Assembly: GCA_020444275.1 (NCBI GenBank)
Contig: JAHLLG010000001.1
Location: forward strand, 583,773-647,772
Source: Bacteroidota bacterium
GTDB lineage: Bacteria; Bacteroidota; Bacteroidia; Bacteroidales; UBA12077
Length of the DNA stretch: 64,000 nucleotides
Reading direction: 5' to 3'
A program made the translations under genes and the position numbers. A model generated the notes under the pieces. It was not told where the DNA came from, made no database searches, and worked only from the letters and a program-made list of their open reading frames with translations. Below, one piece after another: positions 1 to 36,842 of the stretch; position 1 is the first letter of the stretch, and each line of letters begins with the position of its first letter.

Positions 1-504
1 TTGTCTCAGGTTACATCGTTTGAGTTGCCTTTAACTTTAGGTGTTATTGCAATTGCTATGCAATATCAAACACTGAATATTACAGAAATTGTTGCTGCTC
101 AGCAGGGTGGATTTTTAAACTGGACAGTCATAACTAATCCTTTTGCAGCAGCTGCAATGCTAATAGCATTTCTTGGTGCTATGGGACGTTCTCCTTTTGA
201 TGTAGTTCTAGCACCACAAGAAATTCCAATTGGACCACCAACAGAATTTCATTCCGGTTTATTGGGTGTTTTGCAATTGAATCGTGCAATTTTTCCTGTT
301 GCTAAATTGATTCTTTTTATGAATCTATTATTTGGTGGAGCAACCAATTGGTTTGAGTTAATAGTAAAGACATTTTTTATTTATATGTGGTCTGTTTTTG
401 TTGGGGTTGTTTACCCACGATTCAGAGTAGACCAATCAGTGCGATGGTTTTTAACAGTACCATTAATTATTGGAATCATTGCAATTATTTTAATTCGATT
501 TTAA
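1..504 (+). CDS. NuoH/EchB/HyfC-like polytopic membrane subunit of an Ech/Ehr-type complex; C-terminal part, 5' end lies outside the window
   Basis: Open from base 1. Hydrophobic helices plus a loop ..SPFDVVLAPQEIPIGPPTEFHSG.. resembling the PFD..AE.E...G..TEYSG loop of NuoH/HycD-type subunits. Stop is 3 nt before the NuoB-like gene. Confidence 0.7.
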   Translation: MSQVTSFELPLTLGVIAIAMQYQTLNITEIVAAQQGGFLNWTVITNPFAAAAMLIAFLGAMGRSPFDVVLAPQEIPIGPPTEFHSGLLGVLQLNRAIFPVAKLILFMNLLFGGATNWFELIVKTFFIYMWSVFVGVVYPRFRVDQSVRWFLTVPLIIGIIAIILIRF

Positions 505-507
505 GAA

Positions 508-1146
508 ATGAAAGAAGATTTTAAAAAACGGACGGTAATATCACCTGATGGTAAACCGATTGAAATAGATCCTGTTAAAGATTATTTTAGTGATGCTAAG
601 CCTAAGGTATACAAACCTGCGCATCCTGTAATTGAGAAGTTTGCCAATTGGGCACGTGCTAACTCGTTGTGGGTGCTTGGATTTGGAACAGGTTGTGGTG
701 CAATTGAAATGCGTCCGCTGATGACACCCCGATTTGATGCTTACAGATATGGTATTCAGTGGAGACCAACACCAAGACAATCCTCGGTATTTGTTATTTC
801 AGGATACTTATCGGTTAAAACACTTAAACGAGTGGTTCGTACCTATGAGCAGATGCAGAATCCAAAGTTTGTAATTGCCTTGGGTAGCTGCACAATAAAT
901 GGGGGAATGTACTGGGATAGTTACAACACAATCAATCGATTGGATCATTATTTGCCTGTTGATGTGTATGTAGCAGGATGTATGCCTCGTCCGGAATCCT
1001 TATTAACAGGATTCGAAGAATTAAAGAAAATTATAAAAGAAGGTCGTGGAGAAGGTGCTAACAAGTATGCAGAAAATTTCGATTGGTACAAAGCAAACCA
1101 AAAGAAGATTATTAAAGATTGGGATATGCCGGATTATAACTGGTAG
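508..1146 (+). CDS. NuoB/EchC-like (20 kDa, hydrogenase small-subunit-like) Fe-S subunit
   Basis: Motifs FGTGCGAIEM, GSCTINGG and AGCMPRPE match the NuoB FGLACCAxEM / GxCxxxGG / GCPPRPE pattern. The second cysteine of the tandem CC is Gly here. Confidence 0.85.
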   Translation: MKEDFKKRTVISPDGKPIEIDPVKDYFSDAKPKVYKPAHPVIEKFANWARANSLWVLGFGTGCGAIEMRPLMTPRFDAYRYGIQWRPTPRQSSVFVISGYLSVKTLKRVVRTYEQMQNPKFVIALGSCTINGGMYWDSYNTINRLDHYLPVDVYVAGCMPRPESLLTGFEELKKIIKEGRGEGANKYAENFDWYKANQKKIIKDWDMPDYNW

Positions 1147-1186
1147 AAGTAAATATCTTGTAATATAAATACTTAATATTAAAAAA

Positions 1187-1714
1187 ATGAAAGACATAAT
1201 TGACCGAATAAAAACAAAATATACAATATCAGAAGTTGTTGAACAGAGGAAGAATCTAAGTTTTGTAACTGTTTCCAAAGAACAGGCTATCTCCATTATA
1301 ACATTTTTGAGAGATATTGAAGGATTTAAACATCTGGTTTTACTTACTGCAGCTGATTGGATTGAGAATGATAAATTTCAGTTAACTTATTTATTAAATA
1401 ATCCGACTGAAAAGATTGATTTAGGAGTAAGAGTTTTTATTTCCCGAGAGAATGCAAGCATGGAATCAGCTCATCATCTTTGGGAGCAGGTAGCTACTTA
1501 TCAACGTGAATTAAAAGAAATGTTTGGGATTGATTTTCCTGATAGTCCGGGTGTTGATAAACCCTTTATTTTAGAAGGTTGGGAAGATATACCACCTTAT
1601 CGACGTGATTTTGATACAAAACAATATTCTGAAGATACATATTTCCCAAGACCGGGAAGAGAATCAAATGATCCGGCAGAATATATGAAGAAAAAGCTTT
1701 ATCCGAATGAATAA
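1187..1714 (+). CDS. NuoC/EchD-like (30 kDa) subunit
   Basis: 175 aa. Lies between the B-like and D-like genes and overlaps the next gene by 8 nt. The region ..WEQVATYQRELKEMFGIDFPDSPG..PFILEGWE..PPYRRDF resembles the Complex1_30kDa core (ERE..dmfGi.f.gHP..r.il). Confidence 0.7.
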   Translation: MKDIIDRIKTKYTISEVVEQRKNLSFVTVSKEQAISIITFLRDIEGFKHLVLLTAADWIENDKFQLTYLLNNPTEKIDLGVRVFISRENASMESAHHLWEQVATYQRELKEMFGIDFPDSPGVDKPFILEGWEDIPPYRRDFDTKQYSEDTYFPRPGRESNDPAEYMKKKLYPNE

Positions 1715-2897
1715 GAAAAGATTTACCATAAACGAAGACAGATCATTATTCCCAGAAAAAAATGCTGAAGGGAAAATTGATATTGATTTAAGTTCGCATA
1801 AATATCTAAAATTGTGGCAAGGTCCGCAACATCCTGGTATAACCGGTAATATGTCGCTTGAGTTAACAGTACTTGGCGATGAAGTAATGGACTGTGAAAC
1901 ACATGTTGGATATTTACATCGTGGATTTGAAAAATTAATGGAACGACGTAAGTATATTCAATGTTTTCCAATTGTATGTCGGGTAGCTGTACCAGAACCG
2001 GATTTTAATGAGTATTGTTTTGCTTCGGCAATGGAAGAACTTGCAGGCATTGAAGTGCCTGAAATGGCTCAATGGTTAAGAACATTGGTATTGGAAATGT
2101 CTCGACTACAGTCTTATTTAATGTGGATTGGTGGTCAATCCGGTGCTTTTGGTTCCGGAATAATTGGACAATGGTCAATTTACTTACGTGATTTAGTTTT
2201 AGATCGTTTTGAAGAACTTACCGGTGGGCGCGTATATCATATGTATCAATTGCCCGGTGGAGTTCGTGGTTTGTTACCAGACGGATTTAAACAACGCATG
2301 GAAGAAACATTGCTAACCATAGAGAAATTTATGGATGATATCGATAAGGTAATGTTTAACAACGCTGTATTTAAAAAACGTTCGGTAGGAATGGGATATA
2401 TTGATCCTTCATGGGTAAATAAATTCGGAATTACTGGTCCTAATGCACGTGCTGCAGGAATACCTTTAGATGTTCGAAAAGATTATCCATATCTAAAATA
2501 TCCTGAACTGGACTTTGATGTAGTTGTTGGTAAAGATTCTGATATATATACACGTGCAGATATAAGACGAAAAGATCTATTATTAAGTGTTGACCTAATA
2601 CGCCAGATTTTTGCCAAAATGCCTGAGAAGGGTGATATTAAAGCAAAAACACCAAATGTGTTGCACTGGAAGGTGCCAAAAGGAGAAACATATAGCCGTG
2701 CCGAATGTACACGAGGTGAATATGGTTACTATATGGTTTCTGATGGCACTGAATATCCAAGAAGAATCAATGTTCGCGGACCTAGTTATACACATGCAGT
2801 TGCATTGTTAGAAAAAATGATCATTAACACAAATATAGCTGATGTAGCAGGATTAATGGTATCCTTGCATACTTATCCGCCGGAAATTGAACGATAA
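1707..2897 (+). CDS. NuoD / group-4 [NiFe]-hydrogenase large-subunit-like protein lacking NiFe ligands
   Basis: GPQHPG..G start motif, 396 aa. N-terminal R-x-C-G-x-C position reads CRVAVPEP. C-terminal DPCxxC position reads HTYPPEIER. C-terminus is NuoD-like (..GEVDR). Confidence 0.85.
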   Translation: MNKKRFTINEDRSLFPEKNAEGKIDIDLSSHKYLKLWQGPQHPGITGNMSLELTVLGDEVMDCETHVGYLHRGFEKLMERRKYIQCFPIVCRVAVPEPDFNEYCFASAMEELAGIEVPEMAQWLRTLVLEMSRLQSYLMWIGGQSGAFGSGIIGQWSIYLRDLVLDRFEELTGGRVYHMYQLPGGVRGLLPDGFKQRMEETLLTIEKFMDDIDKVMFNNAVFKKRSVGMGYIDPSWVNKFGITGPNARAAGIPLDVRKDYPYLKYPELDFDVVVGKDSDIYTRADIRRKDLLLSVDLIRQIFAKMPEKGDIKAKTPNVLHWKVPKGETYSRAECTRGEYGYYMVSDGTEYPRRINVRGPSYTHAVALLEKMIINTNIADVAGLMVSLHTYPPEIER

Positions 2898-2939
2898 GTT
2901 TATTATTCAAATCAATAAATAAACGAATAAATAGTCATT

Positions 2940-4736
2940 ATGAAACTTAAAGATATATTATCTCCATTTACCGCCTGGAAACATGTAGTAAGAGAGCCTG
3001 TTACCATAAAAGATCCTTTTTCACGCGAAGGAGCCGACAGGTATAGGGGATTTCATAAAAATGATATTGAAACATGTATTGGCTGTGGTACTTGCGAAGA
3101 TATTTGCCAAAATGCAGCTATTGATATGGTTCCCGTAGAAGGTATAGAAACAAAAGACGGTGATAGTGGATTACGTCCACAGATTGATTATGGGAGATGC
3201 TGTTGGTGTGCTTTATGCGTAGATGTTTGTACAACCAATTCATTAAGTCTTTCTAATCATTTTACCTGGGTTGATGAAGATGCTGATGTATTCAGATTCA
3301 TACCTGGTGTAGATAAAAAAGATTGGGATAACGAAGAGCGTGGTTGGAAAAAACCGGAACCAAATTATGAGCTTTACGAAAAGGAAAGAGTTCCAATGCG
3401 AGAGCTTCATCCGGAAGAAAGAGATAAATCTTTTATTGAAATGGTTAAAGGTTATTCCAAAGAAGAAGCTGAGCGCGAAGCAGACCGTTGTGTTGAATGT
3501 GGTATTTGTATTGCTACTTGTCCTGCTCACATGGGTATTCCTGAGTATATCAAGGCCGTTCGTGAAGATAATATCGAAGAAGGATTTAAAAAATTATACG
3601 AAACCAATCCATTACCGGAAATTTGTGGACGTATTTGTACTCATAAATGCGAAACAGTCTGTTCTGTAGGTCATACAGGTGATCCGCTTTCTATTCGCTG
3701 GCTAAAAAGATATATTGCTGATCAGGTTGAATCAGAAGATTATAAGAATATCTTGGGAACAGATGGAATAGAAAATAATGGAAAAAAGATTGCTATTATC
3801 GGATCAGGACCATCCGGTTTATCTGCTGCTCATTATCTTGCATTAATGGGTTATCAGGTTAAAATATTCGAAGCATTTGATAAAGCAGGTGGTATGATGC
3901 GTTATGGAATTCCAGAATATCGTTTGCCTTATGATCAAATCGATAAAGATATTAACTACATATTATCTTTAGGTGTTGAAATTCAATATAATACTAAGGT
4001 AGGAAAAGATGTTTCTTTAGCTGATCTCGAAAAAGAATATGATGCCGTATTTGCAGGAACCGGATTACATTTAGGAAGAAGTACACGTATTCCAGGATCA
4101 GATCATGAAAATGTATACTTTGCTACTGATTTGCTGCGTGAAATTACACAAGGAAAAGAAATTCATGTAGCAGAGAAGATTGTCGTAATTGGAGGTGGTA
4201 ATGTGGCAATGGATATTACTCGTTCGTTAGCACGTTTACAAAACCAGAAATATGGTAAGGTTGATGTTACTGCTACTTCATTAGAATCTGAAGATATAAT
4301 GCCTGCCGATCGCGAAGAAATTGTAGAATCTCGTGAAGAAAAAGCAATCGTTGATCCGGGATGGGGACCTACTTCCATTGAAATTGAAAATAATAAGATT
4401 AAAGGATTACATGTTCAAAAATGTACTTCTGTTTTCGATGAAGAAGGTCGTTTTAATCCTAAGTTTGACGAATCGCAAACAAAATTCTTTGAAGCAGATA
4501 TGATTGTTGAATCAATCGGTCAGGGAATGGATATTGAATATATCAGTAAAGATATTCGTGAACAAATGGAGTTTGATCCACGCGGTAGAATAATTGTTGA
4601 TGATTATTTCCAATCGGGAGCTAAGTGGTTATTTGTTGGTGGAGATATTATTCAAGGACCAGATGTGATTCATGGTATTGCTAATGGACACAGGGCAGCA
4701 ATCGGAATTGATAAGTATTTAAACGAAAAAGCTTAA
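2940..4736 (+). CDS. Fusion protein: NuoI/EchF-type 2x[4Fe-4S] domain plus GltD/NfnB/PreT-like NAD(P)H-FAD oxidoreductase
   Basis: N-terminal CIGCGTCEDIC and CCWCALCVDVC (two CxxCxxCxxxC). Then CVECGICIATCP...CGRICTHKCETVC (GltD N-terminal Fe-S region). Then IAIIGSGPSGLSAA (FAD) and VVIGGGNVAMD (NAD(P)H) Rossmann motifs. Confidence 0.8.
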   Translation: MKLKDILSPFTAWKHVVREPVTIKDPFSREGADRYRGFHKNDIETCIGCGTCEDICQNAAIDMVPVEGIETKDGDSGLRPQIDYGRCCWCALCVDVCTTNSLSLSNHFTWVDEDADVFRFIPGVDKKDWDNEERGWKKPEPNYELYEKERVPMRELHPEERDKSFIEMVKGYSKEEAEREADRCVECGICIATCPAHMGIPEYIKAVREDNIEEGFKKLYETNPLPEICGRICTHKCETVCSVGHTGDPLSIRWLKRYIADQVESEDYKNILGTDGIENNGKKIAIIGSGPSGLSAAHYLALMGYQVKIFEAFDKAGGMMRYGIPEYRLPYDQIDKDINYILSLGVEIQYNTKVGKDVSLADLEKEYDAVFAGTGLHLGRSTRIPGSDHENVYFATDLLREITQGKEIHVAEKIVVIGGGNVAMDITRSLARLQNQKYGKVDVTATSLESEDIMPADREEIVESREEKAIVDPGWGPTSIEIENNKIKGLHVQKCTSVFDEEGRFNPKFDESQTKFFEADMIVESIGQGMDIEYISKDIREQMEFDPRGRIIVDDYFQSGAKWLFVGGDIIQGPDVIHGIANGHRAAIGIDKYLNEKA

Positions 4737-4747
4737 AATAAAATAGT

Positions 4748-5728
4748 ATGATTGACCTTTCGACAGAATACATGGGTTTAAAATTAAAGAACCCAATAAT
4801 TGCAGCTAGTTCAGGTATGACTGATTCAGTTGATAAAATCAAAAAGTTAGCTGATAATGGAGTTGCTGCTGTGGTTTTAAAATCTCTTTTCGAAGAACAA
4901 ATCCGAATGGAGATTGATTCTTTGGGTATGAATAATATGTTCAATTCCTATTCAGATACAGAAAGTTATATTGCCTTTTATACCAAGCAAAACGCCGTTA
5001 GTGAATATTTAAAATTGATTCAGGTTGCAAAAAAAGCTGTTGATATTCCTGTTATTGCTAGTATAAATTGCTATTCTATGGGAGAATGGGTTGAATTTGC
5101 TGAGAAAATTGAAAAAGCAGGCGCTGATGGTATAGAGTTAAATATGTTTATTTTACCTGGAGATACTGAAACCAAAGGTGAAGAAATAGAAAAAAAATAT
5201 TTCGATATTATCGAAAATGTAACAAAACATACTAGTTTGCCGGTTTCAGTTAAGTTGAGTCATTATTTTTCCGGAATGGGAGAGATATTTAAGAGAATTT
5301 CTGAAACACGGGTTAAGGGGATGATTTTATTTAATCGCTTTTATAGTCCGGATGTGGATTTGGATAATGAGGAGATTGTTTCATCAAGAGTTCTTAGTTT
5401 ACCTGAAGAAAATTCAATGTGTATTCGCTGGATAGGAATGTTATCTAATAAAGTATCATCAGATTTATGTGCATCTACCGGAATTATGGATGGTAAGGAT
5501 GCATTAAAAAACATTCTTGTTGGAGCCAAAGCAGTGCAAGTAGCATCTACACTTTATAAAAACAAACCTGAGCAAATAGGTGTAATGTTGAAGCAAATAG
5601 AAGATTGGTTAAAACAGAAAGGATATAAATCCATAGATGAAATAAGGGGAAAACTGAATACGTCAAAACTGAATATGGAACGATACGAAAGAGCTCAATT
5701 CATGAAATATTATTCGAACTACGAATAA
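4748..5728 (+). CDS. Dihydroorotate dehydrogenase-like (DHOD/PreA-like TIM-barrel flavoprotein) protein, copy 1
   Basis: N-terminal L.L.NPII.ASSG, ..ADGIELN.., ..GI..G.DA.k.il.GA.AVQvaS typical of the class-1 DHOD/DPD FMN domain. Starts 11 nt after the GltD-like gene. Confidence 0.75.
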   Translation: MIDLSTEYMGLKLKNPIIAASSGMTDSVDKIKKLADNGVAAVVLKSLFEEQIRMEIDSLGMNNMFNSYSDTESYIAFYTKQNAVSEYLKLIQVAKKAVDIPVIASINCYSMGEWVEFAEKIEKAGADGIELNMFILPGDTETKGEEIEKKYFDIIENVTKHTSLPVSVKLSHYFSGMGEIFKRISETRVKGMILFNRFYSPDVDLDNEEIVSSRVLSLPEENSMCIRWIGMLSNKVSSDLCASTGIMDGKDALKNILVGAKAVQVASTLYKNKPEQIGVMLKQIEDWLKQKGYKSIDEIRGKLNTSKLNMERYERAQFMKYYSNYE

Positions 5729-5733
5729 GAACT

Positions 5734-5761
5734 AAACCGGCTTGGACAGTCGGTTTTTTTA
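5734..5761 (+). terminator. Rho-independent terminator ending the Ech-like operon
   Basis: Hairpin AAACCGGCU / AGUCGGUUU (loop UGGAC) followed by a U run. Confidence 0.6.
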
Positions 5762-5845: not shown

Positions 5846-6328
5846 ATGAAAGTAAGTGAAATATTAGACAAAAAGAAGGAGCAGGGTATAAACAAAATTT
5901 ATACTGTTTCTGAAGTAAGTACTGCATTCGATGCAATTTCTAAATTGGATAACTTAAAAGTGGGATCATTACTTGTTGTAGATTCGAAAGATGAAATAAT
6001 TGGAATTGTATCTGAACGTGATATTTTATATAAATGTTACAATTCCGGAATTCCATTAAAAGAACGTAACATTAAGGATTTGATGACACCAAAAGATAAC
6101 CTGATTATCGGAAAACTAGATGATAAAACCGATTATTTGAGAAGTGTGATGACCGATAGACGAATTCGTCACATACCAATTATTGATGATTCAAACCAGG
6201 TTGTTGGAATAATCTCTTCCGGAGATATTCTTAAAAATGAACTGGAAGTTACCGAAGCAGAAGCACATTTGTTAAGAGAACATATTAAAAATCCTTTTGG
6301 TGTTCATACCTATAAATCTGAAGATTAG
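5846..6328 (+). CDS. CBS domain pair protein
   Basis: 160 aa with two CBS-like units (..VGSLLVVDSKDEIIGIVSERDIL.. and ..IRHIPIIDDSNQVVGIISSGDIL..). Confidence 0.8.
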   Translation: MKVSEILDKKKEQGINKIYTVSEVSTAFDAISKLDNLKVGSLLVVDSKDEIIGIVSERDILYKCYNSGIPLKERNIKDLMTPKDNLIIGKLDDKTDYLRSVMTDRRIRHIPIIDDSNQVVGIISSGDILKNELEVTEAEAHLLREHIKNPFGVHTYKSED

Positions 6329-6353: not shown

Positions 6354-6381
6354 AAAGCCCGGAACTAATTCGGGCTTTTTG
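6354..6381 (+). terminator. Rho-independent terminator
   Basis: AAAGCCCG / CGGGCUUU stem, 9-nt loop, U run. Confidence 0.65.
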
Positions 6382-6461: not shown

Positions 6462-7439
6462 ATGATAGATCTCTCAACAAATTATATGGGGTTTAAATTA
6501 GAAAACCCAATTATTGCAGCCAGCTCAGGAATGACAGATAGTGTTGATAAAATAAAAAACCTGGAAGTGAATGGAGTAGGTGCCGTAGTACTGAAATCAT
6601 TATTCGAAGAGCAAATCATGATGGAGATAGACAAAACTACGGCTCAAAACTTATATAATACATATGGTGATGCAGAGGAATACATCGAGTATTATACTCG
6701 TAAGCATAACATAGATAATTATTTACATCTGATTGAAAAGTCAAAAGCTGAAGTGGATATTCCTGTTATTGCAAGTTTAAATAGTTTCTCTGTTGGGCGT
6801 TGGGTTGATTTTGCTGAAAAAATAGAATCTGCAGGAGCGGATGGAATTGAATTGAATCTTTTTTTACTACCAGGTGATCAAAAGTTTAGCGGGCAGGAAA
6901 TAGAGAATATTTACCTGGATATTATCCGAAGCGTGAGGAAAAATACAACCTTGCCCATTGCAGTTAAGTTGAGTTCATATTTTACCGGTTTGGCCGATTC
7001 GCTCATCAAAATGTCTAAAGAGCAAGTATCAGCCATGGTATTGTTTAATCGTTTTTATAGCCCCGATGTTGATTTGGAGAATGAGCAAATTGTTTCGTCA
7101 AGAATTTTTAGCTTACCCGAAGAAAATTCAAACTGTATTCGTTGGATTGGAATACTTTCTGATAAAGTGGATTGCGATTTAGCGGCATCAACAGGAATAG
7201 TCGATGGCTACGATGCACTTAAGAATTTATTGGTTGGCGCAAAAGCGGTTCAGGTTGCATCTACACTTTATAAAAATACTGCCAAACAAATTGGTATCAT
7301 GAAACATCAAATGGAAGTTTGGATGAACGAGAAAGGATATAAATCTCTGGATGAGATTATAGGAAAACTCAGCTATAAAAAGATTGAAAAGCCAATGATT
7401 TATGAGCGTGCACAGTTTATGAAATACTTTCAGAAGTAA
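6462..7439 (+). CDS. Dihydroorotate dehydrogenase-like protein, copy 2 (paralogue of 4748-5728)
   Basis: Collinear with copy 1 over its full length (MIDLST.YMG.KL.NPIIAASSGMTDSVDKIK...). Same substituted active-site stretch. Confidence 0.75.
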   Translation: MIDLSTNYMGFKLENPIIAASSGMTDSVDKIKNLEVNGVGAVVLKSLFEEQIMMEIDKTTAQNLYNTYGDAEEYIEYYTRKHNIDNYLHLIEKSKAEVDIPVIASLNSFSVGRWVDFAEKIESAGADGIELNLFLLPGDQKFSGQEIENIYLDIIRSVRKNTTLPIAVKLSSYFTGLADSLIKMSKEQVSAMVLFNRFYSPDVDLENEQIVSSRIFSLPEENSNCIRWIGILSDKVDCDLAASTGIVDGYDALKNLLVGAKAVQVASTLYKNTAKQIGIMKHQMEVWMNEKGYKSLDEIIGKLSYKKIEKPMIYERAQFMKYFQK

Positions 7440-7463
7440 TAATTCATATGTTAATAGTTAACA

Positions 7464-7493
7464 AAAGTCAGCATGTTATTTGCTGACTTTTTA
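7464..7493 (+). terminator. Rho-independent terminator
   Basis: AAAGUCAGCA / UGCUGACUUU 10-bp stem, 7-nt loop, U run. Confidence 0.65.
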
Positions 7494-7507: not shown

Positions 7508-8764
7508 ATGATGAAAACAATCTTATTTATAATAGTTGTTATTTTTAGTTTTATTTCTGCTCAGAGTCAGGAAGTTTTTCAAGACAAAATCTTTAATAAA
7601 AACATTAAAACAGTTTTAATGTATCTCGGTGATGATGATATGTCTTTCCCGATTTGGGATTTGGGTAGTAGCAAGCAATTAACGCTCAGTTTTGATGAGT
7701 TAAATGCAAGCGTAAAGGATTATTACTATACTATAATTCACTGCAACTCGGATTGGACAAGATCAAACCTGGATCAAAGTGAGTATATCGAAGGATATTT
7801 TGAAGATCAGATTTCTGAGTATCAATCATCGTTTAATACCACTGTAGATTATACACATTATGAGCTAAAGATTCCGAATGATTATATGCGCCCGATGATA
7901 TCCGGGAATTACGTAATTGAAGTTTTTGATAGTTCAAATCCTGATAAGGCCATATTCAGAAAACGTTTTATGGTGGTTGAGCGAAAAACCAATATCGAAA
8001 TGAAAGTAAGCAACATGAATCAGGGAGCGTATTTTTATAATGATCAGGAACTGGAAATTGTCGTAGATTATTTCCAGAATGATTTTTATGATATCAGTCA
8101 AAATCTTGAAGTTCAGGTTTTAAAAAATTACAACTGGGTACAGCTACTTGTTCTAAAACAACCAAATATAATCAAGGATAATGAGTTTACCTTTAATGAT
8201 TTTTCAAAATTAAAATTTAAAGGTGGTAACGAGTTTCATCACTTTAATACAAAGGATATCCATTATAATGCCGAAAATATTAAGAACATTAGCTTTATGG
8301 ATAATCAGTATCATTTTCAATTAGTTGAGAATAAAGATCGAACATTTGATGATTATCAGTTTGTACCCGATATTAACGGGTTATATAAAATTGATGTATC
8401 ACAAAGTGATTATCCTGAAACAGAAGCCGATTATACATATGTTTATTTTACCTTAAATATGAATGTACCTTTACAGCAGGGTGAAATGTATGTTTGGGGA
8501 GCTTTAACCAATTATGAGTTTACCAACGATAATATGTTGCGATATAATTTCGAACAAAAAGCATACGAGGGACGTTTGCTTTTAAAGCAAGGATACTATA
8601 ATTTTCAGTATGTAACTTTGGAAAAAGGAAAGCCTGATTTTACATACATTGAAGGCAATCATGCACTGACAGAAAATAGCTATACTACATTGGTATATTA
8701 TCACGATTTTAGTGGTGGATATGATCGGTTAATCGGGCATACCGAAATTTCTACAAGAGAATAA
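7508..8764 (+). CDS. Secreted DUF5103 / type IX secretion plug-like domain protein
   Basis: Signal peptide, then ..IKTVLMY..FPIWDLGSSKQLTLSFDEL...YYYTIIHCNSDWT.S.L...EYI.G......Y..S.NT..DYTHY.L.IPN....SGNYVIEVF. I recall this as the DUF5103 N-terminal signature. Confidence 0.5.
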   Translation: MMKTILFIIVVIFSFISAQSQEVFQDKIFNKNIKTVLMYLGDDDMSFPIWDLGSSKQLTLSFDELNASVKDYYYTIIHCNSDWTRSNLDQSEYIEGYFEDQISEYQSSFNTTVDYTHYELKIPNDYMRPMISGNYVIEVFDSSNPDKAIFRKRFMVVERKTNIEMKVSNMNQGAYFYNDQELEIVVDYFQNDFYDISQNLEVQVLKNYNWVQLLVLKQPNIIKDNEFTFNDFSKLKFKGGNEFHHFNTKDIHYNAENIKNISFMDNQYHFQLVENKDRTFDDYQFVPDINGLYKIDVSQSDYPETEADYTYVYFTLNMNVPLQQGEMYVWGALTNYEFTNDNMLRYNFEQKAYEGRLLLKQGYYNFQYVTLEKGKPDFTYIEGNHALTENSYTTLVYYHDFSGGYDRLIGHTEISTRE

Positions 8765-8779
8765 TTAAAAATAAATATT

Positions 8780-9694
8780 ATGTTACAAGAAATTTTTACA
8801 AAAAACTTTTGGTCAAGTATTTTGGATAATTTAATGGAATGGTTTGTAAATGTTGCACCATCCATAATTTTACTGATTATTCTGATATTTATCTCCTTAA
8901 AGTTGTTAGGAGTTCTTATTCGTAGATTAAATAAAATCCTTATTAGCAGGGCAACAAAAAATGTTAGCGTGAATACATTGGAGGCTACCAAGCGAATAAA
9001 TACTTTACTGGGCATACTTAAAGGAATAGGTAATATTATTGTATGGACCATTTTTATAATGATTTTATTAAAAAAGTTGGGAATAGACATTGGACCAATT
9101 TTGGCTGGTGCCGGAATTCTAGGTTTGGCCATTGGTTTTGGGGCACAGGAGTTAGTTCGTGATTTTATTTCAGGATTTTTTATTTTACTGGAAAACCAGG
9201 TACGTGCCGGCGATGTAGCCATTATTAACGGAACCGGAGGACTTGTAGAAAAAATCGAAATGAGAACCATGACTTTACGTGACTTTTCAGGTGTAGTTCA
9301 CGTTTTCCAAAATGGTAAGATAAATACATTGTCGAATATGACAAAAGAGTGGTCGGCTATTGTATTCGATATTGGTGTAGCTTACAAAGAAGATATTGAT
9401 CGGGTTATTAAGATTATGCAACTGGTTGGCGAAAAAATGATCAACGAAGAGGAATATAAAGAGGTAATTACTGAGCCCCTCGAAATTTTTGGATTAGATA
9501 AATTTGGCGATAGTGCTATTGTAATAAAAGCTCGTTTAAAAACTATTCCGGGCGAACAATGGCGTTTGGGAAGAGAATATCGTAAACGACTAAAGGTTGC
9601 TTTCGATAAAGAAGGTATTGAAATTCCTTTCCCACATACAACAGTTTATTGGGGTGAGAAAATCGATCCGTTAAAATTGGATGTTAAGAAATAA
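8780..9694 (+). CDS. Small-conductance mechanosensitive channel (MscS family)
   Basis: N-terminal TM helices, GAGILGLAIGFGAQELVRDFISGFFILLENQVRAGD, then a beta-domain. Classic MscS core. Confidence 0.85.
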   Translation: MLQEIFTKNFWSSILDNLMEWFVNVAPSIILLIILIFISLKLLGVLIRRLNKILISRATKNVSVNTLEATKRINTLLGILKGIGNIIVWTIFIMILLKKLGIDIGPILAGAGILGLAIGFGAQELVRDFISGFFILLENQVRAGDVAIINGTGGLVEKIEMRTMTLRDFSGVVHVFQNGKINTLSNMTKEWSAIVFDIGVAYKEDIDRVIKIMQLVGEKMINEEEYKEVITEPLEIFGLDKFGDSAIVIKARLKTIPGEQWRLGREYRKRLKVAFDKEGIEIPFPHTTVYWGEKIDPLKLDVKK

Positions 9695-9703
9695 AGATAA
9701 GTG

Positions 9704-9740
9704 AAAACCCTGTCAGGGTTTTAAATCCTGACAGGGTTAT
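9704..9740. terminator. Bidirectional terminator between convergent genes
   Basis: AACCCTGTCAGG (9706-9717) pairs with CCTGACAGGGTT (9727-9738), a 12-bp stem with A/T runs on both sides. Confidence 0.6.
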
Positions 9741-9753
9741 ATTTAATTCATAC

Positions 9754-12270
9754 TTACAAATTCTTTTCCGGATACATATCATTCCATTGTTGAGGCTGAT
9801 CTTTTAACTTCATATCGAACCACGACATAATGGTGTAATGCCATTCAATTCTTTTATGATAATCTAAAATCCAGTGTTCCTGATTATCTACCAATACCAT
9901 TTCAACCTCTTTTCCTAAGATTTTTAAAGCTGCATAGTACTGTAAACTTTCACCAACGGGCACATTCGGATCTGTTGTTCCGTGTAATAACAATATGGAA
10001 TTATTAAATTTATCTGCATTATAAATCGGGCTGTTATCAACATAAATATCTTTCCTGTTCCACGGATAGCTGAATTTAGCAGCTCCGGTATTATAAGTAT
10101 ATCCCCAATAACCTTCGCCCCAGTAACTTGTTAACGAACTAATTCCGGCATGCGAAATGGCTGTTTTAAAAATATCTGTTCGGGTTTGCAATAACATGGT
10201 GGTATATCCACCGTACGATGCACCAATGCAGCCCATATTTTCAGCATCAGCTGTTGGATGCGATTCAAGGAATTTTTTGGTTCCTTCAATAATATCATCG
10301 GTTTGATCAAAACCCCAACCATTAACATGCAGTGCTGAGAAATCCTGACCAAAACCTGTTGCACCGCTTGGTTGTAAAACATAAACAATATATCCACCGG
10401 CGGTATATACATTAATTGGATATCTGCCACCAAAAGATCGCTCAATGGGCGATGTGCCGCCATAATAATTTACAATTACAGGATACTTTTTAGAAGCATC
10501 GTAATTTGGCGGATAGTATACCCGGCCATAAATTGTTGTACCGTTTTTATTGGTGAAATTCCATGGTTCAGTTTTGCCAAACTGGATATTTTTAAATCGC
10601 TCTTTTTCTGGGAAAGCTAAAACTGTATTTATTCCTTTTTTTAGATCAATCGAATACAATTTCTTTGGAGTAGAGATGCTTGTTCCGGTATATACAGCAA
10701 CAGGCTTATTATACGCAAAATCAATATCATCAAGAACTTCTACAAGTAAGTTCACTTTACTAAACGATTTGGATTTGAGATTATACTTGTAGAGGTTACC
10801 ATAATCTCTATCGATAACAGAAACATAAATCTCATTATCATTTGTCCAAAAAGCATCACTAATGGCAGGATCAAAGTTTTTAGTTATAGGTTCAACATTT
10901 TTTGAGGCCAAATCAAAAAGATACAACTGAGAATCATACTTGTTCGGAATTCTACCTTTGCTAACATTTACACCCAAATCTCCAAAACTTTCAGGTCCAC
11001 CCTGAACTAAAAGTTTTGTTCCATCTAGTGAATACTGACAATATCCATCATAAAGTTTATCTTCCCAAATGGTATTTATCTGGAACGTGTTGATATCCAA
11101 TTCATACAGATTCTGCTTGAAAAATGGAACTTCATTATAATCCGTTTTCGAGGTCGAGAATAAAATTTTACTTCCGTCAGGTTTAATATCGTGTAAATCG
11201 GCTGATAAATTACCTGCTGTAAGCTGAGTAATCAAACCGGTTTTTGCATCAATTTTGTGCAAGAACGATCGGTTTCTAAAGTAGGGTAAACGATCTTCGT
11301 TTCCATAAATCCTTTTTAGATCACCTGGTTTTGTTGCTGTAATATGATCAGTATAAATAATATACTCTTCAGTTGGCGACCAGGCATACGATGATAGATT
11401 TTCGATTTCTTTAGCAATGCTTGTTTCTGTTCCGGCTTCAATATCATAAACCAGGATTTCTGTTTTTCCTTCGAAATCTAACGAGTAAGATAAACGGTCG
11501 GTTCTTGGTAACCAGCTTACATGATCTATGTTCTTGCTTCGTAAAATTTCAACGTTCTTTTCTTCCTCCAGGTTATAAATAACACTATATTTTTTTGTTT
11601 TGCCACTTCCGGGCACAACCTCTTTGTAATCTATTAAAACGTACTTTCCAGAAGGTGAAATGCTGGCAGCAGAGACATTTTTACCTTCCAATACATCATG
11701 AATGGTAAAATACCTTGTCGCATCCAGACTGGTTTTTGGATTACAGTCTTCATATTCTCCTGCATATTCAAAATTGGCAGCAAGCTTAATTTGCTCATCA
11801 ATGGTAATTGCTTTAATAGTAATTCGATGGTTGCCTCTGTTAAGTTTAAGGTCAATTGCAGTTTTTTCTATATCAGAATTCGATTTTGATTTAAGTTTTT
11901 CGCCATCAACATAAACGTCATATAAGGCATTCAGTGTAAGGTTTAAAGTCCCTTTAGTCCATCGGTCGACCGACAAGTTGGTTTCAAGAAAAAATAGATT
12001 GTATGCCGTTGATTGCAGAAACACAATACTATCAGCACTTAATTTTATGGTATTCCAGCTAAGATTAGCAGTGGAAGCATCGAGCTGTGTAGAATTCATC
12101 AGATTTGATACTTCAAATTCTTTTCCATCGATATTCTTCGTATCAGCAAAAGCAGGCATCTTAATTTCAGGAGTATCTGAAATCTTCCAGCTATTAAGCT
12201 GAATAGAATTTTGAGCAATTGAGAACTGTGTTGCAATTCCCAAAATGAATAGGATAATAAGTTTTTTCAT
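9754..12270 (-). CDS. S9 family serine peptidase (prolyl oligopeptidase/DPP-like) with N-terminal beta-propeller region
   Basis: Signal peptide. C-terminal alpha/beta hydrolase with nucleophile elbow GASYGGY, then ..LLLHGTTDPNV.. and ..QEHWI.. (Asp/His). Confidence 0.85.
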   Translation of the reverse strand: MKKLIILFILGIATQFSIAQNSIQLNSWKISDTPEIKMPAFADTKNIDGKEFEVSNLMNSTQLDASTANLSWNTIKLSADSIVFLQSTAYNLFFLETNLSVDRWTKGTLNLTLNALYDVYVDGEKLKSKSNSDIEKTAIDLKLNRGNHRITIKAITIDEQIKLAANFEYAGEYEDCNPKTSLDATRYFTIHDVLEGKNVSAASISPSGKYVLIDYKEVVPGSGKTKKYSVIYNLEEEKNVEILRSKNIDHVSWLPRTDRLSYSLDFEGKTEILVYDIEAGTETSIAKEIENLSSYAWSPTEEYIIYTDHITATKPGDLKRIYGNEDRLPYFRNRSFLHKIDAKTGLITQLTAGNLSADLHDIKPDGSKILFSTSKTDYNEVPFFKQNLYELDINTFQINTIWEDKLYDGYCQYSLDGTKLLVQGGPESFGDLGVNVSKGRIPNKYDSQLYLFDLASKNVEPITKNFDPAISDAFWTNDNEIYVSVIDRDYGNLYKYNLKSKSFSKVNLLVEVLDDIDFAYNKPVAVYTGTSISTPKKLYSIDLKKGINTVLAFPEKERFKNIQFGKTEPWNFTNKNGTTIYGRVYYPPNYDASKKYPVIVNYYGGTSPIERSFGGRYPINVYTAGGYIVYVLQPSGATGFGQDFSALHVNGWGFDQTDDIIEGTKKFLESHPTADAENMGCIGASYGGYTTMLLQTRTDIFKTAISHAGISSLTSYWGEGYWGYTYNTGAAKFSYPWNRKDIYVDNSPIYNADKFNNSILLLHGTTDPNVPVGESLQYYAALKILGKEVEMVLVDNQEHWILDYHKRIEWHYTIMSWFDMKLKDQPQQWNDMYPEKNL

Positions 12271-31073: not shown

Positions 31074-32366
31074 TTAACGCTGAGCTGATATGTTTAGCTC
31101 TAATTTAACAATATCTTCCTGACCGTATCCGTTTTTGTCATATTTGGAAATGTATGCTTTTGTTCCATTCTCAACCGGATAATAAAACAGATTATCATCG
31201 GTGGTATTTACGGGATAACCCATATTGGTTGGTTTACTCCACACATTCTGCTCAATATTTTCGCTGTAAAAAATATCAAACCCTCCCATGTTATAATGTC
31301 CTTCTGAGCTAAAATACAATGTTTTATTATCCTGACACATTACAGGTGTTTCTTCATTAAACGGAGTATTGATTTCACTACCTAGATTAATTGCTACACC
31401 CCAGTCCTGTGCTTTTTCATCATATTGACTTTTATAGATATCTGTTCCACCGAATCCTCCTTTTCTGTTGCTAACAAAAAATAGTGTTTTACCATCGCAT
31501 GATAAAGAGGCGAAAGTTTCCTGAAAACGGGAATTAATGTTCTTATTCAGTTTTACAGGAGCCGACCATTTATTATTCTTAAGATAGCTCACATAGATAT
31601 CACTTGAAAAATTTTCCTCTTTATATAATAGTAAGGTTTTTCCATCTGAAGATAAAAAACATGGATAAATGTCTCCATTAGAATTAAGATCTGGTGTTAT
31701 GTTAACCGGAGTTGTCCAGGTATCATCTTTCTTCACAGTATAGAATATGGCATCGTAAAATTTGAGCTTACTCATGTAAACCATGCTTTTTTCGTTGGCA
31801 GAAATAAGCGGCCTAATATTTGGAAACTGGTCGTTAATATATTCTCCAATATTGATTTCATGTACTTCTTTAGGTTTGCTTATCAGATCTTTAGCGGCAT
31901 TACACGATTGAATTTGTTTGTAAACGTAGTCAAGATTATAGTTGTTATTGCTTGCAACTAGCTCTTCAAATTTTTTAAATGTTTCGATAGCCTTTTCCAG
32001 TTCATTATTTTGCTGGTAGGCACACGCAAGATAGAAGAGTGTTCGGTACGGTGCTTTAGTTTCTTTTATTGAACCTTCCTTAATGTCATCAGATAAATTA
32101 TTACAAGCTTCTTCAAGAAAAGGAATTGATTTTTCTTTCTGACCTGATATTTGAAGATAACACTCTCCAATCCGGTGTTTTATGTATGCGTTATCTAAAC
32201 CCTTATTATGAAGATCTATATAGAGAGCCAAAGCTTCCGGATAATCTTCGTATAAGATAAAATACTCAGCTTCTTCAAATGTTTCTTTTAAGACATCTTT
32301 ATTTTGCGAAAAGCTGATTAAATATACGAATATACTTAATACAGTAAATAATAGTTTTTTCCCCAT
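31074..32366 (-). CDS. TPR plus PD40 (TolB-like beta-propeller repeat) periplasmic/outer-membrane-associated protein, paralogue 1
   Basis: Signal peptide from the internal Met (MGKKLLFTVLSIFVYLISFSQ; ORF extends to 32414). N-terminal TPR region, then repeated ..S.DGKTL.F.SNR.GG.GG.DIY.. PD40-type units. Confidence 0.7.
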   Translation of the reverse strand: MGKKLLFTVLSIFVYLISFSQNKDVLKETFEEAEYFILYEDYPEALALYIDLHNKGLDNAYIKHRIGECYLQISGQKEKSIPFLEEACNNLSDDIKEGSIKETKAPYRTLFYLACAYQQNNELEKAIETFKKFEELVASNNNYNLDYVYKQIQSCNAAKDLISKPKEVHEINIGEYINDQFPNIRPLISANEKSMVYMSKLKFYDAIFYTVKKDDTWTTPVNITPDLNSNGDIYPCFLSSDGKTLLLYKEENFSSDIYVSYLKNNKWSAPVKLNKNINSRFQETFASLSCDGKTLFFVSNRKGGFGGTDIYKSQYDEKAQDWGVAINLGSEINTPFNEETPVMCQDNKTLYFSSEGHYNMGGFDIFYSENIEQNVWSKPTNMGYPVNTTDDNLFYYPVENGTKAYISKYDKNGYGQEDIVKLELNISAQR

Positions 32367-32444
32367 AAGACGACCAAAGTAGATTGATGATTTACGAGTA
32401 CAATTTACTGACAATTAATAAAAAAAACCAAAATAAAAAGTTAA

Positions 32445-35378: not shown

Positions 35379-35504
35379 AAAATCCTTATTTTCAAACACA
35401 CGAAATTAGATAAAAATAATGAAAAATTTGCGTATAGCTATGGAATAATAACTAAAATTATTTGATTCTAACTAAATATGTGACAAAGGGATAAAAATAT
35501 TAGA

Positions 35505-36842
35505 TTAATCTTCGGAGATGTAGTTTTCGTTATTATTTAACTCTTTTTCTTTCTCAGGAATATTTTCTCTTTCAAATATTTGAATTCTATAGATGTCATT
35601 GTCCCCATAACCTGTTTCCTTAAATTTGGAGTAATAGGCTATTTCTCCGTTTTTTAATGGGAAGAAGAACAAATCATCGTCTGTAGTATTAAATGGTAGT
35701 CCAAGGTTTTCAGGCTTACCCCAGTCTGTACCTTGTATTTTAGCTGTAAAGATATCGAAACCACCAATATTAAAATGGCCTTGGGAAGAAAAATATAAAG
35801 TTTCTTCGTCTTCTGTAATAAAAGGAGTAGCTTCATCAAAAACAGTATTTATGGTTGCTCCTAAATTTTCAGGCGGACCCCAATTTCCTTCATTATCGAT
35901 TCTTGACCTGTAAATATCGAAACCACCAAAACCTCCTTCTCTATTGCTTGTAAAGTAAAGCGTTAATCCATCATCAGAAACGCATGCGTGTGTTTCTGAT
36001 GCACTTGTATTAATATTGCTGTTTAATTTTACAGGAGGTCCCCATATTCCATCATTAAACCGGCTAGTGTATAAGTTAAGATCATCGTTATCGTTTCGAA
36101 CTAAGTATAATGTATTACCATCTCTTGTTAAATATACCGGAGTTAAAGGATTTTCGGAGTCAAAATCCAAGGAAATATTTCTTGCAGGTAACCAAAAACC
36201 ATCTCGCTTTTTAGATGCGAAAATTCCATCATAAAATCTTAACTGACTTACAAAAACAATAGTTTCTTCATCTTCAGAAACTAAAGGATTAATATTATTA
36301 AAAGAGCTGTTAATATTTTTTCCCAGATTTTTTTCTATAATACTCGTAGGAATTTTTGATAGTTCTAATGCATTGTTACAGGCTGTTATTTCTGCATCTA
36401 CAATTTTTTGTTGCTCCTGATCATTTGGATCAAGGAGTTCTTTATATTTTTTAAAAGCTACAATGGCTTCTTTTAATTTATTATTAACTCTGTATGCTCT
36501 GCCCAAATAAAGATAAGCCTCTATAGGCGCTTCGCGTTCGTTATAATTACCAACACTATAATTCGTATTTATGTTTTCAACAGCTTCTTCAAGATATTTA
36601 ATGGCTTTGTCTTTTTCATTGGGGATGTTTAAATAACATAAACCTATTCTGTGTTTAATGTTGGCATCTCTTCTTCCTGCATCATATAATTCTAAAAAAT
36701 AGGGTAATGCTTCGCGATATTCTTCATAGATTAAAGAAAATTCACCATTAATAAAGGCTCTTTTTAGATCCTTTTTGGTTTGGGCATTGATATTTCCAAA
36801 CAGAAATGAAATAAAAATTGATAGAATCAAGATTTTTTTCAT
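35505..36842 (-). CDS. TPR plus PD40 protein, paralogue 3
   Basis: Signal peptide MKKILILSIFISFLFGNINAQ, TPR region, PD40-like units (..S.DGLTLYFTSNREGGFGGFDIY..). Confidence 0.7.
   Translation of the reverse strand: MKKILILSIFISFLFGNINAQTKKDLKRAFINGEFSLIYEEYREALPYFLELYDAGRRDANIKHRIGLCYLNIPNEKDKAIKYLEEAVENINTNYSVGNYNEREAPIEAYLYLGRAYRVNNKLKEAIVAFKKYKELLDPNDQEQQKIVDAEITACNNALELSKIPTSIIEKNLGKNINSSFNNINPLVSEDEETIVFVSQLRFYDGIFASKKRDGFWLPARNISLDFDSENPLTPVYLTRDGNTLYLVRNDNDDLNLYTSRFNDGIWGPPVKLNSNINTSASETHACVSDDGLTLYFTSNREGGFGGFDIYRSRIDNEGNWGPPENLGATINTVFDEATPFITEDEETLYFSSQGHFNIGGFDIFTAKIQGTDWGKPENLGLPFNTTDDDLFFFPLKNGEIAYYSKFKETGYGDNDIYRIQIFERENIPEKEKELNNNENYISED

Follow-up and report, generated by a model that had tools for sequence, protein, structure and literature searches.

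A Bacteroidota operon of the Mbx/MBS family with a predicted NADH-linked flavoprotein fused to its MbsN-like subunit

The closest described relatives of the locus reported here are the MBS complex of Pyrococcus furiosus (formerly MBX; PDB 6U8Y) and the mbx-like operons of Thermotoga and proteobacteria, in which a gltD-related flavoprotein takes the place of NuoI and a rubrerythrin gene is often the last of the operon (Degli Esposti 2015, PMC4758237). In MBS the proximal cluster is held by cysteines C28, C93 and C123 of MbsJ only, C25 being too distant, and this cluster with its open iron is the site at which polysulfide is reduced, while the vestigial NiFe cysteines C85 and C385 of MbsL are dispensable for activity (Yu et al., PMC7684303). 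In Thermotoga maritima, mbxA was found to be induced 4.4-fold by S0, and sulfur reduction by the complex was proposed by the authors from transcript data only (PMC9431562). Here we describe positions 1-5761 of a stretch of 64,000 nucleotides from a Bacteroidota bacterium (NCBI GenBank assembly GCA_020444275.1, contig JAHLLG010000001.1, positions 583,773 to 647,772 of the forward strand), referred to below as the window, and assign them with high confidence to the 3' end of a bacterial operon of the Mbx/MBS type (Mrp-Mbh class). The best explanation of the whole, which we hold to be probable though less secure than the family assignment, is an NADH-linked, ion-translocating oxidoreductase of MBS type, to which proteins resembling dihydroorotate dehydrogenase (DHOD), CBS-pair proteins and rubrerythrins would be accessory.

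Six open reading frames, separated by 3, 40, -8, 42 and 11 nt, run on the forward strand up to a terminator-like hairpin (5734-5756) followed by a T run. An earlier model-made reading of these letters (the sequence-only reading) had given exactly these positions and gaps and the same terminator, and its domain assignments agreed with Pfam and NCBIfam for all six proteins, including a NuoI-like subunit fused to a GltD-like flavoprotein (MbsN-like, Fer4_20 and Pyr_redox_2 parts) and a DHOD-fold barrel as the next gene. Its view that one unit continues upstream of the window also held, because the first open reading frame is a gene fragment, 96% identical to residues 143-309 of a 309-aa NuoH/MbsM-like protein in an uncultured Bacteroidales metagenome-assembled genome (L001) whose large subunit is 98% identical to that of the window. 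The features of the unit are as follows.

1-504, + strand: MbsM/NuoH-like membrane anchor, C-terminal 167 residues, gene cut by the window edge (Pfam NADHdh, profile positions 134-297 of 298)
508-1146, + strand: MbsJ/NuoB-like subunit, predicted to hold the proximal [4Fe-4S] cluster, only cysteines C63, C128 and C158 (best PDB match 6u8y_J)
1187-1714, + strand: MbsK/NuoC-like subunit (Pfam Complex1_30kDa, 88 bits), in place in all loci of relatives
1707-2897, + strand: MbsL/NuoD-like large subunit, without NiFe cysteines or quinone ligands (best PDB match 6u8y_L)
2940-4736, + strand: fusion protein of 598 aa, MbsN/NuoI-like 2x[4Fe-4S] part joined to an NfnB/GltD-type part predicted to hold 2x[4Fe-4S], FAD and NAD(P)H (NCBIfam PRK13984)
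2952-3365, + strand: MbsN-like ferredoxin domain of the fusion, residues 5-142, with Cys 46/49/52/56 and 87 or 88/90/93/97
3423-3737, + strand: Fer4_20 domain of the fusion, residues 162-266, with Cys 184/187/190/194 and 229/233/237/241 (Pfam PF14691, 104 bits)
3786-4673, + strand: FAD and NAD(P)H-binding domain of the fusion, residues 283-578 (Pfam Pyr_redox_2)
4748-5728, + strand: first DHOD-like barrel protein, 326 aa, PRK07565 family (Pfam DHO_dh; NCBIfam NF005741)
5734-5761, + strand: terminator-like hairpin and T run, end of the unit that runs from the mbx genes to the DHOD-like gene

The subunits were compared with all PDB sequences, and domains were read from Pfam and NCBIfam profiles. 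The large subunit matched MbsL (6u8y_L) best, at 316.7 bits, ahead of Nqo4 of T. thermophilus (206), MbhL (120.7) and HycE (96.9), and hydrogenase profile models matched it only at about 1e-5. The NuoB-like subunit reached 217 bits against MbsJ (6u8y_J) and at most 130 against chains of NDH-1 or complex I, and residues 5-142 of the fusion protein reached 84.5 bits against MbsN (6u8y_N), with the next NuoI-type chain at 42. The large subunit scored above the cutoff of the NCBIfam NuoD model NF004739 (387.5 vs 360) and the NuoB-like subunit above that of NF005012 (201.4 vs 116), both of them generic models that capture Mbx-type proteins too.

The window itself contains only M (partial), J, K, L and N of the cluster core, and exact-sequence look-ups of its large subunit, fusion protein and DHOD-like protein (100% identical to P0121) gave no contig on record. 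Relatives were collected by a large-subunit search over one genome per species, which returned 80 loci, and L001 was used as a proxy for the DNA upstream of the window. In L001 the genes for MrpE, MrpF, MrpG, MbhD, MbhE/MnhB, a NuoK-like protein and a 1045-aa protein with two antiporter domains run in one direction and are followed in the same direction by NuoH, B, C, D, the fusion protein, a DHOD-like protein, a CBS protein and a second DHOD-like protein. Within the 1045-aa protein an MbsH part (residues 7-316, 171 bits) is joined to an MbsH' part (residues 468-1039, 212 bits). The 12-gene core seen there (mrpE-F-G, mbsD, mbsE/mnhB, nuoK-like, MbsH+H' fused, MbsM, J, K, L and N::flavoprotein) has the identical order in every locus long enough to show it, with labels that include Bacteroidales, Prolixibacter, Marinimicrobia, Cloacimonadota, Spirochaetes, Chromatiales, Sedimenticola, Thiohalocapsa, Dechloromonas, Gallionellaceae, Magnetovibrio and Magnetococcales. 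The Mrp, antiporter and M-J-K-L-N arrangement was seen in L001 and more than 60 further loci, and the conserved cluster in about 100 loci besides L001. Large-subunit identity is 70-98% over at least seven labelled lineages. We place the cluster with Mbx/MBS and not with Ech because this upstream Mrp module and the two antiporter-like subunits stand in the order of the Pyrococcus mbx/mbs operon, which we take to be A-B-C-D-E-G-H-H'-M-J-K-L-N. The sequence-only reading had derived an Ech type from the gene order H-B-C-D-I, which is common to Ech and Mbx and does not discriminate between them, and the Mrp module and the 6U8Y matches speak against that assignment. It had also proposed a search for antiporter subunits upstream, and in the relatives the Mrp module and the double antiporter are indeed present.

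Some of these loci carry peculiarities of their own. A gene for a '23S rRNA intervening sequence protein' (PF05635) lies between the large-subunit and fusion genes of L001 (11324-11710) and of L081-L084 (5719-6075), and L002, L004 and L016 have unannotated gaps of similar size at this spot that may hold the same gene, as against 42 nt in the window. The fusion gene of L084 (6117-7995) was called as two open reading frames (95 and 539 aa), probably through a frameshift or an assembly error. Four metagenome-assembled genomes labelled Caldisericales, Clostridia or Thiohalospira (L006, L019, P0139 and P0236) encode proteins 75-83% identical to the Bacteroidales versions, the copies of L006 and L019 on short contigs; these are probably binning contaminants, and such taxon labels need care.

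At the membrane-chamber site the window's J-type protein has exactly three cysteines (63, 128 and 158), aligned with MbsJ C28, C93 and C123, and the position of MbsJ C25 is Gly60 (FGTGCGAIEM vs FCTGCGGIEM). The corresponding single-Cys motif, [FY][GA][TS]GCG.IE[ML], was present in 68 of the 69 J subunits of relatives, and the complete loss of the fourth J-subunit cysteine across the bacterial clade, as read from these alignments, is a new element. The absence of NiFe cysteines from the large subunit, reported from the letters before, was confirmed by alignment, with Ala94 at the position of MbsL C85 and Tyr390 at that of C385; the tyrosine is universal in relatives, and at the C85 position 43 of 80 relatives keep a Cys, the Bacteroidales branch having Ala. 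Where NiFe enzymes have the motifs RxCGxCxxxH (L1) and DPCxxCxxH/R (L2), the window reads RVAVPEPD and HTYPPEIER, with no ligand cysteine. The quinone ligands H38 and Y87 of Nqo4 are replaced by Thr46 and Val95 (alignment to 2FUG_4), residues that are invariant in the 80 homologues, and the tandem Cys-Cys of cluster N2 is reduced to a single Cys in the NuoB-like subunit (GTGCGAIEM). With the NiFe and quinone ligands gone and the three-Cys motif kept, the site thus resembles that of MBS, and not a quinone or hydrogenase site.

Two other classes were considered for the complex and rejected: an Ech-type group 4 [NiFe] hydrogenase, ruled out by the missing NiFe cysteines and by the architecture, and canonical complex I, ruled out by the replacement of H38 and Y87 and by the loss of Cys-Cys in the NuoB-like subunit.

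The fusion protein matched the NCBIfam model PRK13984 ('putative oxidoreductase') at 904.4 bits over profile positions 7-609 of 611 (equivalog cutoff 946). Its residues 148-597 gave 272 bits against 9N5U_A, 267 against T. maritima NfnB (4YLF_B) and 260 against P. furiosus NfnI (5JCA_L), with GltD at 182 bits and dihydropyrimidine dehydrogenase (DPD) at 118. Two CxxCxxCxxxC motifs in the MbsN-like part and eight more cysteines in the Fer4_20 part make 16 cluster cysteines, all conserved in relatives, as are the dinucleotide motifs GxGxxG (FAD, residue 288) and GGGNVA (residue 418), so that the protein is predicted to hold up to four [4Fe-4S] clusters and an FAD. Very probably a pyridine nucleotide is donor or acceptor through this flavoprotein. 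In residue-by-residue alignments with 9n5u_A, 8oh5_C, 9bov_A and 4ylf_B, its S447-L448-E449 falls on the Y-R-R of NfnB/GltD-type proteins, which we take to be the basic pair that binds the 2'-phosphate of NADPH, and a motif search of 114 homologues was able to place this stretch in 71, all of which read T[SAC]LE. The Rossmann-fold rule holds that a second strand ending in an acidic residue favours NADH, and because Y-R-R is replaced here by S-L-E, NADH is the likelier nucleotide, a prediction that leaves NADPH a substantial chance. In three Marinimicrobia loci (L028, L038 and L068) a gene for Rex (NF003995, 212 bits), the repressor that senses the NADH/NAD+ redox state, lies about 109 nt upstream of mrpE on the same strand, a position which fits an NADH-linked complex. 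The predicted specificity for NADH is a new element.

The full complex would comprise an Mrp-like Na+/H+ module (MrpE, F, G, MbsD, MbsE/MnhB and the NuoK-like protein), the fused pumps MbsH+H', the anchor MbsM and a peripheral arm of MbsJ, MbsK, MbsL and MbsN. A pyridine nucleotide, probably NADH, would reduce the FAD of the fusion protein, from which electrons would travel by way of the Fer4_20 pair of clusters and then the MbsN-type pair to the proximal [4Fe-4S] cluster of MbsJ, expected to have three Cys ligands and an open iron as in MBS, where S-S bonds of polysulfide are cleaved. Turnover of a substrate in the MbsL/J/M chamber, which lacks the quinone ligands of complex I, would then drive, or be driven by, translocation of H+ or Na+ through MbsM, MbsH/H' and the Mrp arm, with the DHOD-like, CBS and (in other phyla) rubrerythrin-like proteins as accessory partners. 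Because of the homology to MBS and the T. maritima transcript data, sulfane sulfur, e.g. polysulfide or persulfide, leads the candidates for the membrane-site substrate; by analogy with the archaeal enzyme it may be put forward tentatively, at somewhat less than even chances.

Several points weigh against this scheme. The upstream genes were read in relatives and not in this window. The window contains no sulfur-metabolism genes, its 9-64 kb part yielding only housekeeping genes when scanned for sulfur or respiratory genes, and neither the DHOD-like nor the rubrerythrin-like companion is a recognised sulfur-metabolism gene. For Bacteroidota, the tight spacing (11 nt) of the DHOD-like gene and its recurrence speak against its being a mere passenger, and the proximal cluster may have a fourth, non-Cys ligand. 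A literature search found no biochemical characterisation of any bacterial member. With redox potentials of about -320 mV for NADH and -260 mV for polysulfide, electron transfer from NADH to polysulfide would yield only about 12 kJ per electron pair, well below the yield from ferredoxin in the archaeal MBS and little for a pump with three ion paths. These energetics are the reason why the substrate is named so much more cautiously than the family, and they imply a low stoichiometry, a higher-potential or otherwise different acceptor, or reverse operation in sulfur oxidisers, in which the ion gradient would drive the reduction of NAD+ by sulfide or polysulfide.

The first DHOD-like protein matched NCBIfam NF005741 (PRK07565) at 406.7 bits and its paralogue at 402.3 (cutoff 303), whereas the first reached only 109.6 against the PyrD model PRK07259 (cutoff 269) and 87.1 against the PreA model (cutoff 335). 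A literature search on the PRK07565 'dihydroorotate dehydrogenase-like' family found nothing on its function. In a Foldseek search an AlphaFold2 (AF2) model (pLDDT 79, pTM 0.82) was closest to L. lactis DHODA (1DOR-type, class 1A; E 4e-17, TM 0.65-0.71), with domain IV of DPD close behind. Its active-site loop reads ELNMFILPGD against ELNLSCPNVPG, so that the catalytic Cys130 of DHODA is replaced by Ile135 and the loop is two residues shorter; the protein has no Fe-S domain or motifs, no catalytic Cys or Ser and three scattered cysteines. From its fold it probably binds FMN, and Lys45, Asn132 and Asn196, invariant in the family alignment, may be read as candidate residues of the FMN site, while the further invariant motifs KSLFEEQ, LFNRFY, RW and YERAQFMKY point to a distinct function. 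A true PyrD or PreA was ruled out by the missing catalytic Cys, the missing Fe-S domain and the profile cutoffs.

Among the loci found via the large subunit, the DHOD-like gene comes immediately after the fusion gene in 13 of 14 loci of Bacteroidales type and in none of about 40 others. Thus, of the co-occurrence to be expected from the sequence-only reading, the conserved core and GltD-like fusion stood, but the DHOD-like gene proved restricted to Bacteroidota-type loci, and it is absent even from the close relative L004, where the order is fusion, CBS, T9SS (type IX secretion system) plug. In other phyla its position is taken by a rubrerythrin-family protein of 145-170 residues (four examples checked with Pfam). 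A census of what follows the fusion gene gave 47 DHOD-like, 33 rubrerythrin-like and 6 neither (5 of them labelled Spirochaetes), the DHOD-like count being inflated by the part of the sample picked via the DHOD-like protein; in two metagenomic loci (L097 and L101) fusion, DHOD-like and rubrerythrin-like genes are consecutive. This alternation downstream of the fusion gene is a new element, and no published mention of a DHOD-like companion of mbx-like operons was found in a literature search.

A metagenome search seeded with the DHOD-like family returned 66 loci with readable upstream DNA, in which the gene followed the mbx fusion gene (30), yggS (15) or an unfused NfnA/NfnB-like pair (1, L164), adjoined only a rubrerythrin-like gene (3) or had none of these contexts (17); rplS is the next gene after the DHOD-like one in L160, the only yggS locus that was inspected. 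In L164 (415-3798) PyrK/NfnA-like, unfused NfnB/GltD-like (with the Y-R-R NADPH motif) and DHOD-like genes stand in a row, which ties the DHOD-like family to NfnB-type flavoproteins in a second way. Away from any mbx cluster, L132 and L137 (also L120; the arrangement was inspected in L132 and L137) have a DHOD-like gene immediately preceded by a rubrerythrin-family gene, and these two families seem to be associated with one another in addition to their association with the complex. A DHOD-like gene of the second-paralogue type lies beside T9SS-plug and MscS genes in L085/L086, with no mbx cluster nearby. The family numbers 655 cluster representatives at E<=1e-30, of which the 150 best are without exception single-domain, with lengths of 227-413 aa (about 320-340 in most) and with no fusion to a GltD/NfnB, MbsN or rubrerythrin domain, and so give no gene-fusion support for a physical partnership. 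We regard the DHOD-like protein not as a defining subunit but as a companion that recurs within one lineage, shows some association with NfnB-type flavoproteins and with rubrerythrin-like proteins, and is fairly likely accessory rather than core.

Two further genes beyond the terminator of the unit had been passed over in the sequence-only reading.

5846-6328, + strand: CBS-pair protein (Pfam CBS), with its own terminator-like hairpin at 6354-6378
6462-7439, + strand: second DHOD-like paralogue, 66% identical to the first (PRK07565), with its own terminator-like hairpin at 7463-7491

A CBS gene was also found downstream of the cluster in Bacteroidales, in Marinimicrobia (L020, L028 and L062) and in one gammaproteobacterium (L078), and its product may be a nucleotide-sensing regulator of the complex.

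In the sequence-only reading the module was joined to an electron input or output resembling a split DPD, with the fusion as PreT-like protein and the barrel as PreA-like FMN protein; taken as a rival explanation, this input would be obligate and its FMN site would turn over a soluble substrate. The domain inventory is formally that of DPD (ferredoxin-type 2x[4Fe-4S], Fer4_20, FAD/NAD(P)H and a DHOD-fold barrel), the barrel gene starts 11 nt past the fusion gene within the same terminated unit, it adjoins the fusion gene in nearly all Bacteroidales-type loci and in 30 of the 66 loci found via the family, and the NfnA/NfnB-like pair of L164 gives a second, independent link to an NfnB-type flavoprotein. 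Against this, the gene is missing after the fusion gene in all of the roughly 40 non-Bacteroidales loci, which have a rubrerythrin-like gene there, and in L004; 36 of the 66 family members with readable upstream DNA are not beside an mbx cluster, 15 of them being beside yggS; no fusion to any partner occurs in the top 150 cluster representatives; the barrel lacks an Fe-S domain and a catalytic Cys or Ser and scores far below the PreA cutoff; and the membrane module is of the Mbx/MBS and not the Ech type. The label PreT-like does not fit a flavoprotein whose nearest relatives are of the NfnB type, nor PreA-like the barrel, and the split-DPD analogy, being only formal, is weak; we consider an Ech/Ehr-type module with such an obligate input unlikely. 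In a related arrangement, to which we give a very small chance, the Bacteroidota DHOD-like FMN protein would be a true subunit docked on MbsN::NfnB, making a three-port, DPD-like wire and a flavin-based bifurcating module on a complex-I-type pump. The ports may be NADH at the FAD, a soluble substrate at the FMN and the three-Cys cluster in the membrane chamber, and the NfnB-type flavin may split or merge electron pairs between the soluble and the ion-pumping sites.

An alternative complex I, i.e. an NADH:menaquinone oxidoreductase with the NfnB/GltD-type flavoprotein in place of NuoEFG and with quinone reduction in the MbsL/J/M chamber, would sit well with the scores of the large and NuoB-like subunits above the NuoD model and subfamily cutoffs, and with an MBS chamber that equals the quinone chamber of complex I in width (PMC7684303). 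On established potentials, electron transfer from NADH to menaquinone would yield enough energy for three ion paths. Menaquinone is made by Bacteroidota. However, every homologue has Thr and Val for the head-group ligands H38 and Y87, the tandem Cys-Cys of N2 is a single Cys, the sequences resemble MbsL and MbsJ far more than they do any quinone-reducing homologue, and the quinone-reducing Nqr is already encoded next door in L001 and L016, so we rate this explanation as rather doubtful. An Rnf-like role, in which ferredoxin would feed the MbsN clusters for an ion-coupled reduction of NAD(P)+ by the fused flavoprotein, was proposed by Degli Esposti for mbx-like complexes (PMC4758237); in Nfn it is the NfnB-type module that handles ferredoxin and NADPH, and many host lineages may, as fermenters or autotrophs, need exchange between ferredoxin and NAD(P). 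Such a role implies no chemistry at the MbsJ/L/M chamber, which is the coupling site of all characterised relatives (PMC7684303) and the best conserved part here, with L 70-98% identical across phyla and its motifs invariant; the original idea of Pyrococcus Mbx as a ferredoxin:NADP+ enzyme has been superseded by sulfane reduction (PMC7684303, PMC9431562), and the fused domain probably covers the MbsN surface used by ferredoxin. We find the ferredoxin:NAD(P)+ role improbable and prefer the NADH-linked MBS-type oxidoreductase.

Clustering of the regions upstream of the non-Bacteroidales loci turned up no conserved sulfur genes, and regulators alone recurred, FNR-type in Bacteroidales and Rex in Marinimicrobia. 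Twelve Bacteroidales loci have a divergent Crp/Fnr-family gene with an FNR-like Cys pattern (C-x2-C-x5-C and a later Cys), which suggests anaerobic or oxygen-responsive control of the operon. In L001 this regulator (1388-2119, minus strand) contains YCSECKSMSPC and a later Cys. Beside the regulator, about 1.2 kb upstream of mrpE on the minus strand, L001 and L016 encode nqrA (subunit A of the Na+-translocating NADH:quinone reductase, 495 bits). Further along the window, the genes for a T9SS plug protein, an MscS-type channel and an S9 peptidase (7508-12270) have the same order as in L085, which supports a Bacteroidota origin of the window, and three consecutive genes for PD40/WD40-like beta-propeller proteins of 446, 984 and 445 aa lie at 31074-36842 on the minus strand.

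MBS is seen as an ancestor-like relative of complex I, of which the archaeal ferredoxin-driven enzyme alone has been studied. The bacterial branch spans anaerobic Bacteroidales and Marinimicrobia to sulfur- and iron-oxidising Proteobacteria, and its pump appears to be wired directly to the pyridine-nucleotide pool. If the substrate is sulfane sulfur, the complex would tie sulfur cycling and ion gradients directly to NADH in a wide range of sulfidic habitats, and low-cost reverse electron flow would be possible in sulfur oxidisers; if it is not, a widespread respiratory enzyme still awaits assignment of its substrate. The cultured host Prolixibacter bellariivorans (L005) makes the question testable, and the DHOD-like, rubrerythrin-like and CBS companions are unexplained leads. 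The sequence-only reading knew of no characterised complex of this composition, which holds for biochemistry, but the architecture had been described (PMC4758237) and PRK13984 models the fusion. The core architecture is thus already known from comparative genomics, and the locus is a bacterial, pyridine-nucleotide-linked variant of the Mbx/MBS family and not an unprecedented DPD-like input.

Set beside P. furiosus MBS, the cluster shares the gene order from the mrp module through H, H', M, J, K, L and N, the best sequence match for L, J, N, H and H' (the last two read from L001), the three-Cys proximal cluster, the lack of quinone ligands and the Mrp-type Na+ module. MBS has a free MbsN as its ferredoxin dock, whereas MbsN is the N-terminus of a 598-aa flavoprotein fusion in the window, so that its likely partner is a pyridine nucleotide and not free ferredoxin; the bacterial cluster has MbsH and H' in one fused protein (L001), the counterparts of MbsJ C25 and of MbsL C85 and C385 are gone in the window, and the host is a mesophilic bacterium. 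The mbx-like operons of Degli Esposti, a partial nuo/mbx operon with an Mrp module and a gltD-related subunit, form the family to which the window belongs, and the proteobacterial loci retrieved here likewise end with a rubrerythrin-family gene, which in Bacteroidota is replaced by a DHOD-like gene (two paralogues in the window) or joined by one (L097/L101). The C-terminal 450 residues of the fusion have the Fer4_20 2x[4Fe-4S], FAD and NAD(P)H domains of NfnB-type proteins (4YLF_B, 5JCA_L) and of GltD, but the window protein differs in having no NfnA partner, in its N-terminal MbsN-type ferredoxin part and in reading S-L-E for Y-R-R. DPD (PreT/PreA; pig DPD) agrees formally in its set of cofactor domains, and class 1 dihydroorotate dehydrogenases share the barrel fold of the DHOD-like protein, which differs from both in its Ile for the catalytic Cys, its shortened loop and its lack of a C-terminal Fe-S domain; the flavoprotein in turn scores less than half as high against DPD as against Nfn-type proteins (about 270 bits), and its basic pair has become Leu-Glu. 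Ech-type group 4 [NiFe] hydrogenases have the same peripheral-arm gene order, H-B-C-D-I, but one antiporter-like subunit (EchA) and no Mrp module, as against seven Mrp/antiporter-type genes upstream in the relatives. With Ehr complexes in the broad sense the complex shares their defining trait, kinship with group 4 hydrogenases without NiFe ligands; the term Ehr-type, applied to it in the sequence-only reading, is right about the lost ligands and acceptable only loosely, in the usage of those authors who count Mbx among the Ehr complexes.

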